Positions 59,630-63,818 of a DNA stretch of 64,000 bases are shown here, piece after piece; positions within the stretch are counted from its first letter, which is position 1, and every line of letters starts with the position of its first letter. The position numbers and the translations under genes are program-made. This stretch comes from an uncultured Planctomycetota bacterium (GTDB taxonomy: Bacteria > Planctomycetota > Planctomycetia > Gemmatales > Gemmataceae), in the NCBI GenBank assembly GCA_963849325.1, contig CAWKHF010000001.1:537210-601209 (forward strand). The letters are read 5' to 3'. The notes beneath the pieces are model-generated. The model did no database searches, had not been told where the DNA came from, and saw only the letters and a program-made list of their open reading frames with translations.

Positions 59630-61195
59630 ATGGGGATGATGGAGCCGGATTCCAGCCGCGACCAGCCGTCTTCTCCCCCTCCTTCCGCCTCCGTCGCCCT
59701 TGTCGGAGCCGGACCCGGCAATCCCGGCCTGCTGACGCTGCGTGCGGTCGAATGCCTCGCACGGGCCGACCTGGTCCTGTACGACCGGCTCGTCCCCGTT
59801 CGCTTGCTGGATCACGTCCCGGCGACGGCCCAGCGGATTTGCGTCGATGCACTGCACGGCTCGCATCCGGAGGCGCTGGCCGGAGATTTATCAGATCATG
59901 ATCGACGCCGCTCGCCGAGGACAGCGCGTCGTGCGTCTCAAGGGCGGCGATCCGTTTCTGTTCGGCCGTGGCGGCGAGGAGGCCGAGGCGCTGCGGCGGG
60001 CCGGCATCTCCTACGAGGTCGTGCCCGGCGTGACGGCGGCGCTGGGCGCGGCGCCTTCGCCGGCATTCCGCTGACGCACCGCCAACACGTCAGCGCCGTG
60101 GCTTTCGTCACCGGCCACGAAAAGCCGGACAAGACTGACAGCTTCCTCGATTGGCCGGCGCTGGCCCGATTTCCGGGAACGCTGGTCATCTACATGGGTA
60201 TGGCCCGGTTGCCGCATATCGTGCAGATGTTGACGGAGCACGGCAAGCCGGCGGAGACGCCGGCCGCGGCGGTCCACTGGGCGACGACCGGCCGACAGCG
60301 CACGGTGACGGCGGCGCTGGGCGACCTGCCCGCCGCCGTGCGCGAGGCGGGGCTGACGGCGCCATCGCTCGTTATCGTCGGCTCCGTGGTGACGCTCCGC
60401 GCGGAATTGGCCTGGTTCGAGACACGGCCGCTCCTGGGCCGGCGCATCCTGGTGACACGTCCTCGTCACCAGGCGGGGGAAATGGTCGCCCGGCTGGAGG
60501 AACTCGGCGCCGTCGTGTCGCTGCTGCCGGCAGTCGAGGTCCGCGAGCCGGCGGACTGGGCGCCGGTGGACCGAGCGCTGGCCGAACTGGCGAGCTATCA
60601 ATGGCTCGTCTTCACCAGCGTCAACGGCGTGGATGCCTTCGTCCGCCGTCTGCGCCAGACGGGGCGCGACCTGCGTGCCCTGGGTTCGCTGCGCCTGGCC
60701 GTCATCGGTCCCGCCACCGCCGACGCCCTGCGCCGCTATCATCTGGAGCCGGATCTCATCCCGCCCGTCTACGATTCGGAAAGCCTGGCCTCGGCCTTGA
60801 AGGAACGGACGGCCGGACAGCGCGTGCTGCTGGCGCGAGCGGATCGAGGGCGCGAGGTGTTGCGCGAACAGCTGACGAGCGTGGCGGAGGTCGAGCAGAT
60901 CGCCGTCTATTCCCAGGTGGATGCCGTCGAGCCGGCGTCGGAGGCCGTCGAAGCCTTGCGACGGGGTGACATCGATTATGTCACCTTGACCAGCTCCAAC
61001 ATCGCGCGGTCGCTGGTCCGCGGACTCGACGAGGAAGCGTTGCGGCGCATCCGTGCCGGCTCCGTGCGACTGGTGAGTATCAGTCCGGTGACGAGCGCGG
61101 CGATCCGGGAGCTGGGTTTGCCGGTGGCGGCGGAAGCGCGGGAGTTCACCGCCGAGGGGGTAGTGCAAGCGCTGCTCGATCTGGCCCACAAATAA
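59630..61195 (+). CDS. cobA-hemD: Uroporphyrinogen-III C-methyltransferase / synthase fusion (compensating frameshifts about 59872-60050)
   Basis: [55 protein letters not shown]. Confidence 0.92.
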
Positions 61196-61718: not shown

Positions 61719-62724
61719 TTGGCTACACCTGTCGTCTTGATCGCCGGCGACGGCATCGGGCCGGAAGTGACGGCGGCCATGCAGACCGTCGTCCAGGCGG
61801 CGGGCGCGGACGTGACCTGGGTCGAGGCGATGGCCGGCCTGGGCGCCGCCGAGCGCTACGGCGATCCGCTGCCGGCCGCCACCCTCGATCTCATCCGCCG
61901 CTATCGCGTCGCCCTCAAGGGACCGTGTACCACGCCGGTCGGCAAGGGCTTTCGCTCCATCAACGTCCGTCTGCGCAAGGAGCTGGACCTGTACGCCAGC
62001 GTCCGTCCCGTGTGTACGCTGCCGGGCGTGGCCGTGCCCTACGAAAAGGTCGATCTCGTCGTCGTCCGCGAGAACACCGAGGGGCTGTACTCGGGACAGG
62101 AGCACGTCGTCGTTCCCGGCGTGGTCGAGAGCCTGCGCATCATCACGCGGACGGCGGCGGAGCGCATCGTCCGCTACGCTTTCGAGCTGGCCCGGCACGG
62201 TGGACGCCGCCGCGTCACCTTCTGCCACAAGGCCGACGTCATGCCGCTGAGCGACGGCCTGTTCCTCACCACGGCGCGGGCCGTCGCCGACGATTATCCC
62301 TTCCTCGAATTTGAGGAGATGCACGTCGATCACCTGTGTTTGCAGCTGGCCCTGGACCCGACGCACTTCGACGTGCTGGTGATGGAAAATCTGTTCGGCG
62401 ACGTGGTGAGCGACCTGTGCGCCGGCCTGGTGGGCGGCCTGGGCCTGGTGCCGGGCGCCAACCTGGGGCAGCGCTATGCCGTGTTCGAGGCGGTGCATGG
62501 CAGCGCGCCGGACATCGCCGGCAAGGGACTGGCCAACCCAATCGCCCTGATCCGCTCGGCGGCGATGATGCTGGAGCACATCGGCCAGCGGCAATCCGCT
62601 GGCCGCATCGAGGACGTCGGTACGGCGAACGCTGGCGGCGAAGCGCGGCCTGACGCGCGACCTCGGCGGCGACGGCAACACCGCCACGCTGACGCAGCAG
62701 CTGATCGCCAACTTGCAGGTTTAG
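61719..62724 (+). CDS. NAD-dependent isocitrate dehydrogenase-family protein 1 (frameshift near 62617)
   Basis: GDGIGPEV, SINVRLRK, RENTEGLY, FGDVVSD, HGSAPDIAG; corrected end LTRDLGG...IANLQV*. Confidence 0.9.
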
Positions 62725-62782
62725 CCGCGACTGCGCAGCGGAGCGCGGCTAGCCCGCGCTCCGCTGCGCGTCGCGGCTAAAC
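62719..62782. repeat. Family A REPIN-like palindrome between the two idh-like genes; supplies the first gene's stop
   Basis: ...TTG CAG GTT TAG ccgcgactgcgcagcggagcgcgg...ggctaaac. Confidence 0.88.
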
Positions 62783-62797
62783 GAGAAAGGTGTGCGC

Positions 62798-63818
62798 ATG
62801 GCCTTACGTGTCACGCTGGTTCAGGGCGGCGGGGCGGGACTCGATCAGGTGCCGGCCGTGCAGACGATTTTCGCCGCAGCCGGCGTCGCGATCGACTGGG
62901 ACGAACATCTGGCCGGCTGGGCGTCGATGGAGCGCGGCGGCCCGGCCACTGCCCCGAGGAGTTGCTGCGCTCGGTGCGCGACACCGGCCGCGTACTGAAG
63001 ACCAAGCTGCTGCCGCCGCCGGGACCGGCCTCCGGACCTCGACCGGAGAAGTTCAACTTCAACGTCCAGCTCCGCCGCGAACTGGGCCTGTTCGCCTCGG
63101 TTCGGCCGCTGAAGAACCTGCCCGGACTGCCGGCCCGCTTTCAGGGCGTGGACATGCTCGTCATCCGCGAGCTGACCGAAGACCTGTACGCCGCCATCGA
63201 ACACGAGATCGTGCCCGGCGTGGTGCAGAGCATCAAGGTCGTGACCGAGGCCGCCAGCCGTCGCTTCTTCCGCTTCGCCTTCGAGTGGGCCGCGCGGCCG
63301 GCCGCAAGACCGTGACCTGCGTCCACAAGGCCAACATCCTCAAGCTGGCCGACGGCCTGTTCCTGGAAGCGTTCCGCACGGCGGCGCAGGACTTCCCCGA
63401 ATTGCAGCCGCGCGAGATCATCGTCGACAACTGCTGCATGCAGATGGTGTCGCGGCCGCAGCAGTTCGACGTGCTGGTCATGGGCAACCTGTACGGCGAC
63501 CTGGTGAGCGACCTCGGCGCCGGCGTCGTCGGCGGCATCAGCGCCACGGCCGGCATCAACGTCGGCGACGGCGTGCGCGTCTACGAAGCGTTCCACGGCG
63601 GCAGCCGCGAGCTGATCGGCGTCAACCGCGCCAACCCGCTGCCGCTGCTGCTGCCGGCCATCGACCTGCTCGACGCCGAAGGGCAGGACGTCCTCGCTCG
63701 CCGCCTCCTGTCGGCGGCCGAGCGCGTGCTGAGCGAACGTCGGGCACTGACGCCCGACCTGGGCGGACAGGCGACGACGACGGACATGACGGATGCCATC
63801 ATCGCGGCGTTGCAATGA
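62798..63818 (+). CDS. Isocitrate dehydrogenase-family protein 2 with degenerate coenzyme motifs (frameshifts near 62955 and 63295)
   Basis: NVQLRRELGLFASVRP, RELTEDLY, HKANILK, VDNCCMQ, YGDLVSD, TPDLGG. Confidence 0.88.

Follow-up and report, generated by a model that had tools for sequence, protein, structure and literature searches.

A tandem pair of isocitrate dehydrogenase family genes in Gemmatales planctomycetes as a candidate heteromeric bacterial enzyme

The active sites of the isocitrate dehydrogenase (IDH) family are composite: each chain brings its own residues for substrate, metal and cofactor, and a Lys-x-Asn motif and an Asp are donated by the other chain. The eukaryotic enzyme that depends on nicotinamide adenine dinucleotide (NAD) has an octamer as its higher assembly, and, to our knowledge, every member of this dehydrogenase family dimerises. 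In human IDH3, according to the available text of PMC5241874, Lys173 and Asn175 of the alpha subunit form hydrogen bonds with the citrate or isocitrate bound in gamma, and Asp215 of gamma helps to bind the metal of the alpha active site. Hetero-oligomeric NAD-IDH is presented as mitochondrial, and its bacterial relatives as homomeric, in the accessible portions of PMC4360740, PMC8333347 and PMC7480870; the first of these describes the bacterial single-gene enzymes of the mitochondrial-like branch as homotetrameric, and the other two treat NAD-IDH as the standard example of a bacterial homomer turned into a catalytic-plus-regulatory heteromer in eukaryotes. A full-text literature search, subscription-only papers aside, turned up no bacterial IDH described as heteromeric; the design with a catalytic and a non-catalytic subunit has so far been described only for mitochondria. 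Here we describe a pair of IDH-family genes near the end of a 64,000-nucleotide stretch of DNA (the window; positions 537,210 to 601,209 of contig CAWKHF010000001.1, assembly GCA_963849325.1) from an uncultured soil planctomycete of the family Gemmataceae. We consider it probable, if well short of certain, that the two genes (gene 1 and gene 2, the latter downstream) encode the two subunits of one heteromeric, presumably NAD-specific IDH, that its second composite site is a remodelled pseudo-site, and that the frame breaks in the deposited sequence are assembly errors. This reading is based on sequence features, conservation, co-occurrence and phylogeny.

Both genes were located in a six-frame listing and a three-frame translation of the window (Table 1). 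Gene 1 reads LIAGDGIGPEV, RSINVRLR, RENTEGLY, HKADVM, VDHLCLQ, GDVVSD and HGSAPDIAG, and gene 2 reads QGGGAGLDQ, NFNVQLR, RELTEDLY, HKANILK, VDNCCMQ, GDLVSD and HGGSRELIG; all motifs quoted in an earlier sequence-only reading of this DNA are present in the translation. The residue pattern was followed by aligning 44 orthologues of gene 1 and 70 of gene 2 with 10 single-gene relatives and three representatives of eukaryotic type; rows covering fewer than 300 query residues and two duplicate loci were excluded (residue labels in human IDH3 alpha numbering). The own site of gene 1 is canonical, with GDGIGPE in 42–44 of the 44 orthologues, and Thr74, Ser82, Asn84, Arg88, Arg98, Arg119, Tyr126, Asp230, Asp234 and the HGSAPD(I/L)AG loop in all of them. 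The donated residues of gene 1 are altered: Asn175 is replaced by Asp (34), Ser (6) or Glu (4) and is found in none of the 44, the Ile that follows is Val throughout, and the residue after the donated Asp varies (His 12, Arg 11, Ala 7, Thr 7, Asn 4). The donated Lys and Asp themselves are present in 44/44. The sequence-only reading had proposed a complementary loss of motifs in the two genes; this goes too far, since it is only the neighbours of the donated Lys and Asp that have changed.

Gene 2 has canonical donated H-K-A-N-I and D-N motifs in 70/70 orthologues, and a canonical ensuing C-M-Q in 69–70. Its own pocket keeps Asn84, the three Arg, the Tyr (69/70) and both metal Asp (70/70). Ser82 is Asn in every orthologue, and Thr74 is replaced by Pro, Ser or Ala. 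The N-terminal loop has the form Q(67)-G-G(68)-G-x-G-x-D(67) and the cofactor loop the form H-G-(G54/A14)-x-R(62)-(E48/D10)-x-(I56/V11)-G(56), the numbers being counts out of 70. By these counts, the cofactor loops of gene 2 have been remodelled into newly conserved motifs and have not decayed, an indication that the pocket has a function. In all 10 single-gene relatives a single chain combines the own-site residues with the donated Lys-x-Asn and Asp; the residue that follows this Asp is Asn in nine and Ala in one. Neither gene of the pair shows this single-chain motif set of the bacterial homomeric NAD-IDH: the donated Asn is missing from gene 1, and the Ser and the cofactor loops from gene 2. 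The alignment thus places all altered residues in one composite site, formed by the gene 2 pocket and the residues donated by gene 1, and leaves the other (gene 1 pocket, gene 2 donated residues) canonical and invariant. That the changed and kept positions are the trans-acting ones follows from the human alpha-gamma contacts, as given in the available text of PMC5241874.

The conservation pattern indicates that gene 2 is under constraint. A word-indexed protein search gave at least 120 clusters at 73–100% identity to P0001, the intact orthologue from the same genus, and over 33 orthologues the mean column identity is 75%, with the loop residues Q9, G10–G12 and H274 invariant. Scanning one genome per species gave 80 loci (L025–L104). 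Of these, L025–L093 and the partial L103 are of the Gemmataceae/Gemmatales type with a gene-2-type gene, and the ten from other phyla (L094–L102, L104) are single IDH genes of the ordinary kind that have all motifs. For linkage, the 69 Gemmatales loci L025–L093 were used, 11 of which had too little flank and were set aside; gene 1 is the immediate upstream neighbour of gene 2 in 47 of the 58 informative loci, at gaps of -9 to 793 nucleotides. Across the family, order and class, 41 genomes were compared; both genes occur in 30, neither in 9 and a single one in 2, the exceptions being G010 (64% complete; gene 1 alone) and G015 (75% complete; only a fragment of gene 2, where a contig ends). The pair is retained or lost as a unit, yet it is not always in tandem. 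The conservation of the pair, which the sequence-only reading had put forward for checking, was confirmed, since both genes are intact in relatives and are together or absent in 39/41 genomes; the tandem arrangement that it had described is found in 19 of the 30 two-gene genomes and is not universal. A search across the phylum with gene 2 (E ≤ 1e-100) found it in 0/301 genomes and missed the window's own broken copy as well. Six records titled 'uncultured Alcaligenaceae bacterium' (L053, L064, L066, L072, L075, L079) hold Gemmatales-type pairs that are nested within Gemmataceae clades in both trees described below, and their labels look wrong.

The two proteins would form a dimer with two unlike composite sites. 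Site A, made of the own residues of gene 1 and the HKAN and DN donated by gene 2, would be fully canonical and would oxidise and decarboxylate isocitrate with NAD. A heterodimer with one catalytic site is suggested because a homodimer of gene 1 would put the altered residues into its own active sites, and because a homodimer of gene 2 gives no evident reason for its perfect donated residues. Physical association, catalysis at site A only and any regulation are what we infer from these patterns. The heteromer proposed in the sequence-only reading is partly supported in this way: the comparison bears out the conservation, the joint gain and loss, the residue pattern and the difference from the eukaryotic regulatory subunits.

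A different explanation is that the two genes encode separate homomers, gene 1 an ordinary NAD-IDH and gene 2 a diverged dehydrogenase or decarboxylase, which are neighbours through tandem duplication. Gene 2 does keep the catalytic Tyr and Lys, the three Arg and the metal Asp, and its Q-G-G-G-x-G loop could in principle hold phosphate. We regard this explanation as quite improbable, since single-gene relatives keep in 10/10 the Asn that every gene-1 orthologue has lost and that would fall in the active sites of a gene 1 homomer, since canonical donated residues beside a remodelled gene 2 pocket would have no evident reason, and since the two genes are jointly present or absent in nearly all of the 41 genomes. 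Several observations nevertheless weigh against the heteromer, and part of them favour the two homomers. With its donated Lys and Asp in all orthologues, a gene 1 homodimer might be active, and the metagenomic gene 1 of locus L183 keeps even the donated Asn. The whole Tyr/Lys/metal set retained in gene 2 makes an activity of its own possible. The residue labels were transferred by motif equivalence with P0138, not by structural superposition. In 11 of the 58 informative loci at least 1300 nucleotides of upstream flank are available and gene 1 is absent there, and in 11 of the 30 two-gene genomes the genes lie on separate contigs; these cases of missing linkage, together with the strong hairpin that often stands between the genes, mean that gene 1 and gene 2 need not share one transcript. 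Finally, the genomes used for co-occurrence are kin, so that their counts are not independent events and overstate independence.

In the heteromer that we favour, site B would consist of the own residues of gene 2 and those donated by gene 1. It would keep the Arg triad, the Tyr, the Asn and both metal Asp, with the Ser changed to Asn, the Thr lost, and an Asp, Ser or Glu received from gene 1 instead of Asn; its cofactor loops would be rebuilt as Q-G-G-G-x-G-x-D and H-G-G/A-x-R-E/D-x-I/V-G. With the Ser, the Thr, the donated residue and the loops altered, site B could presumably not use NAD in the usual way. What would remain is a metal-tricarboxylate pocket, plus a conserved glycine-rich and Arg-Glu surface at the cofactor position. 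Judging from these residues, the ligand of site B is most likely a metal-tricarboxylate, a phosphorylated effector or both, or else a second isocitrate. The site would then be a regulatory, or at least a structural, pseudo-site like that of gamma or IDH1 in mitochondria, and through the subunit interface its ligand would modulate site A, as happens in alpha-gamma and yeast IDH1/IDH2. A bolder reading of the two loops (Q-G-G-G-x-G-x-D and H-G-G-x-R-E) would make them a new effector site for a nucleotide or a phosphorylated metabolite.

The heteromer could also be real with gene 2 as a purely structural partner, which completes the gene 1 site and whose own pocket binds and regulates nothing, in the manner of human beta. 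As stated in the available part of PMC6827300, citrate and ADP do not activate the alpha-beta dimer of the human enzyme, in contrast to alpha-gamma. Gene 2 has changes at the ligand-contacting Ser and Thr, and the acidic residue donated by gene 1 in 38/44 orthologues could repel a carboxylate. However, the gene 2 loops are newly conserved (Q 67, D 67, Arg 62 and Glu/Asp 58 of 70), not degenerate, and an Arg triad, Tyr and metal Asp kept in 69–70 of 70 are hard to explain for an empty pocket; we consider a purely structural role unlikely, though it is the alternative with the most in its favour.

The assignment to the IDHs is based on profile scores. Both genes pass Pfam PF00180 (cut-off 27 bits), gene 1 with 308.5 bits and two gene 2 pieces with 132.7 and 58.6 bits. 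In NCBIfam, the best scores of the intact orthologues of both genes are on IDH models, all of them under the equivalog cut-offs, with TIGR02088 and AksF2 next: on NF006529 (PRK08997, cut-off 510 bits) and TIGR00175 (mito_nad_idh, cut-off 432.4 bits), gene 1 obtains 414 and 382 bits in G001 and 429 and 403 bits in G027, and gene 2 obtains 278 and 320 bits. The NCBI name for such proteins is just 'isocitrate/isopropylmalate family dehydrogenase'; at present, both genes go under 'isocitrate dehydrogenase (NAD+)' or 'family dehydrogenase'. In the gene 1 loop HGSAPDIAG, the Asp-Ile is what we take to mark NAD-type enzymes, those for NADP (NAD phosphate) having Lys-Tyr there, and the Ser-x-Asn pair of gene 1 is presumably typical of IDHs. 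The same genome holds an Escherichia coli-type NADP-IDH (NF005425, 500.9 bits, cut-off 490) and a frame-broken LeuB/tartrate-dehydrogenase-like gene; given the separate NADP-IDH, the pair would be an additional IDH. In relatives without the pair, the match that is kept lies in an open frame of 460–485 residues, the kind seen for NADP-IDH. An identity as homoisocitrate or isopropylmalate dehydrogenase was also considered and appears less likely, as gene 1 scores highest on the IDH models and a separate LeuB-like gene is present.

Pairs of this kind are also found in other forms. With gene 2 as query, a full scan of 1.84 billion representatives returned its own family and, besides, diverged relatives whose cofactor loops are degenerate. 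A tandem of a catalytic-type gene and a partner of a GDW type is found in two genomes (G156, G107) from another planctomycete family. The catalytic gene reads HKAAVV or HKAPVV at the donated motif, and the partner has GDWVGPE, HKSNIMK, the donated Asp, and HGKAPHLVG or HGRAAELVG. These pairs come from a phylum-wide search with P0128, whose generic patterns mostly matched ordinary single-gene IDHs. Among 80 metagenomic loci retrieved with an alignment of these partners, 71 are ordinary single genes, 2 have a Gemmatales-type gene 2 alone on short contigs, and 7 are pairs, in all of which, as in G156 and G107, the catalytic-type gene is upstream. Two of the seven are of the Gemmatales type (L183, L196) and two of the GDW type (L119, L171); the combination of an HKAA/HKAP catalytic gene with a GDW partner was read in L119, and L171 is placed here by its partner type. 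The remaining three (L120, L134, L153) are a third type, with HKASIM or HKGAIM in the catalytic gene and YESPNVRLR and HKANIM in the partner. The cofactor loop of this YESPN-type partner has lost even the His.

The relation between the pair types was addressed with two trees. A FastTree phylogeny of 140 rows, with 15 pair loci chosen by us, the 10 single genes and all representatives of 315–520 residues, placed gene 2 in a 31-row clade with the degenerate representatives and gene 1 among the bacterial single genes. The eukaryotic-type rows were identified by PDB sequence searches: P0138 is alpha-type (531 bits to human alpha), P0161 gamma-type (416 bits) and P0146 regulatory-type (337 bits to beta). 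The second tree was built in IQ-TREE from 81 rows and 333 columns under LG+C20+F+G4 with PMSF, the groups having been named after the first tree had been seen. In it, the eukaryotic alpha and regulatory subunits form a clade (12 rows, 100/95) that excludes all bacterial subunits. The catalytic subunits of all three bacterial pair types fall in one clade (14 rows, 94/96), and the bacterial partners fall with the degenerate representatives in another (24 rows, 100/98); that both clades contain all three pair types is a further point against two unconnected homomers. The backbone between these three clades and the bacterial single genes is unresolved. The tree favours, without being decisive, a single old duplication in bacteria from which the three pair types arose, distinct from the duplication in eukaryotes.

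With respect to the convergent origin that the sequence-only reading had suggested, the partners do stand outside the eukaryotic clade, but a shared origin is not rejected. A constraint that groups the eukaryotic regulatory subunits with the bacterial partners lowers the log-likelihood by 21.5 units (p-AU 0.18, approximately unbiased test), and the double constraint, which also joins alpha with the bacterial catalytic subunits, lowers it by 21.2 under LG+F+G4 (p-AU 0.198). The free LG+F+G4 tree puts the whole eukaryotic clade next to the bacterial partners, a placement that may be long-branch attraction. The eukaryotic alpha-clade sequences P0221, P0238 and P0240 read HKATIM, not HKANIM, their donated Asn being replaced in parallel to gene 1. 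That the split into catalytic and partner subunits was one ancient bacterial invention, and that mitochondrial IDH3 descended from such an enzyme and not from a duplication in the eukaryotic stem, seems to us rather doubtful.

In the window itself both genes are interrupted, as the sequence-only reading had noticed, by one frameshift in gene 1 and two in gene 2. Compared with the intact orthologue of the same genus, gene 1 shows 93% identity over 299 residues and then 88% over the last 33 residues in another frame, and gene 2 aligns with P0001 as three pieces in three frames (79%, 79% and 86% identity). Each of the three breaks is an indel of 1–2 bases against the DNA of the same-genus relatives L026 and L029, in which, as in more distant relatives, both genes are open from start to stop; in-frame stops are absent inside the pieces. 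The assembly comprises 8.16 Mb in 14 contigs, and the names borne by near-identical proteins point to the Gemmataceae (Planctomycetota). Its rpoB is found in at least four frame pieces and its rpoC in at least three (G000:C1:334967-343005), and the cobA/hemD-type gene upstream of the pair (a uroporphyrinogen methyltransferase/synthase fusion) is frame-broken against its same-genus orthologue. Since the relatives are intact and rpoB and rpoC are broken alike, the three breaks are most likely indel errors of the assembly and not gene decay. The window sequence was left unmended, and the further analysis was based on the intact orthologues.

Should the breaks be genuine, both genes would be decaying pseudogenes in this strain. 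The breaks do stand in the deposited sequence, and among the public sequencing runs sought for this stretch the best shares only 0.13 of the sampled words, with no RNA run among the matches listed. Four soil runs gave short contigs of relatives only, in which two of the three break points have an indel at the site or close by, each on a single low-depth contig: one contig of a related organism in run X3 has one base fewer at 62949 and at 62951, and one contig in run X5 has a base inserted behind 63295. We nonetheless hold decay in this strain to be very improbable indeed. Essential genes (rpoB, rpoC) and cobA/hemD are broken in the same way, the protein identity to intact orthologues is 79–93% apart from the indels, with no stops within the pieces, and the few-contig assemblies of the genus are low in marker completeness (85% for the window's assembly with 14 contigs, 74% with 5 contigs, 78% with 8 contigs), against 64% to 97% for the many-contig ones. 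Gene 2 as a pseudogene in general is ruled out by its conservation across the orthologues. A frame plot of G+C at third codon positions (GC3) across the window, at strict thresholds, flagged no frame switches and missed the known breaks too. The LeuB/tartrate-dehydrogenase-like gene (G000:C2:58714-59741) is likewise split between frames; single-base indels are frequent in this assembly, and any call of a pseudogene in this genome needs comparison with relatives.

Table 1. Features of the gene pair and its surroundings in the window, with the two GDW-type pair loci of other genomes
Feature	Position	Strand	Remarks
Gene 1, putative catalytic-type IDH subunit	61719..62724	+	TTG start at 61719, stop 62722-62724, ~334 residues if read through
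Gene 2, putative non-catalytic partner-type IDH subunit	62798..63818	+	ATG at 62798, GTG at 62792, stop 63816-63818, ~340 residues if read through
Frame break 1, gene 1	62613..62616	+	one extra base vs relatives: GAGGACGTCGG vs GAGGA-GTCGG (L026), GAGG-CGTCGG (L029)
Frame break 2, gene 2	62949..62951	+	two extra bases vs relatives L026, L029
Frame break 3, gene 2	63289..63291	+	one base missing: GAGTGGGC-CGCG vs GAGTGGGCGCG (L029), GACTGGGCACG (L026)
Intergenic stem-loop	62725..62776	+	7 + 16 pairs, T run absent downstream
Purine-rich GAGAAAGG, ribosome-binding-site-like	62783..62790	+	7 nucleotides before the gene 2 ATG; read from the sequence, putative function
cobA/hemD-type gene	59742-61195		frame-broken
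Open reading frame, 93 residues	61268-61549	-	two hydrophobic stretches
Open reading frame, 390 residues	58443-59615	+	TatC-like by eye
GDW-type pair locus L111	G156:C22:2964-5032		
GDW-type pair locus L112	G107		

The stem-loop between the two genes has a folding free energy of -52 kcal/mol and a z-score of -6.3 against 100 mononucleotide shuffles. Long near-perfect hairpins are also seen in the pair spacers of relatives (40–300 nucleotides), with z ≤ -4 in 18/25, a count taken over gene 1–gene 2 spacers only; hairpin-bearing spacers include those of L026, L029, L031, L036, L048, L050, L069, L081 and L087. The sequences of these hairpins are unrelated between genomes and are without a trailing T run. 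The element may end the transcript as a U-less terminator, attenuate it or affect mRNA stability, or it may be a mobile palindromic repeat. The 93-residue open reading frame of Table 1 is situated between cobA/hemD and gene 1 and is 90% identical over 86 residues to an open reading frame of the same-genus relative L029. In the 390-residue frame farther upstream, the first hydrophobic segment is followed by a long charged insertion; TatC, at about 250 residues, is far shorter.

If the heteromer is real, complexity of this kind would be no eukaryotic speciality, and the pair would lend itself as a second case for the question of how paralogous subunits come to depend on each other. With two genes that can be expressed in E. 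coli, it would also be a tractable system for the passage from a pseudo-active site to a sensor. What the current annotation of the two genes hides is that one product, taken alone, is probably no enzyme.

Among described systems, the bacterial single-gene NAD-IDHs of the mitochondrial-like branch (6lky, 6ltf, 6m3s) are the closest solved relatives, at 236–237 bits to gene 2. Gene 1 is 49–56% identical to single genes of other phyla, and all own-site motifs are common to both. The single-gene enzymes, however, have own and donated motifs in one chain and no partner gene beside them, whereas gene 1 is without the donated Asn. The Thermus-type homoisocitrate and archaeal-type isopropylmalate/homoisocitrate dehydrogenases are similar in length and fold and give 225–229 bits to gene 2; unlike them, gene 1 has its top scores on IDH models, and its genome carries the separate LeuB/tartrate-dehydrogenase-like gene. 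The eukaryotic mitochondrial NAD-IDH (human IDH3 alpha with beta or gamma, yeast IDH2 with IDH1) is likewise built of two paralogous subunits of the same fold. As in IDH3, one subunit has a complete set of own-site residues (gene 1, 42–44/44), and the partner keeps the donated Lys-x-Asn and Asp, appears unfit for usual NAD binding and retains a substrate-type pocket with Arg and Tyr. The pattern of change in gene 2 is, as the sequence-only reading had held, unlike that of the eukaryotic regulatory subunits: both metal Asp are kept in 70/70, while P0146 and P0161 have Asn/Thr and Asn, in line with the replacement of the metal Asp by Asn/Thr that the available text of PMC5241874 gives for the eukaryotic regulatory subunit. 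Conversely, the regulatory-type P0146 and P0161 largely keep the Ser and the N-terminal GDGIGPE loop, which gene 2 does not. The bacterial subunits also differ from IDH3 in being without presequences and in standing outside the eukaryotic clade (100/95).

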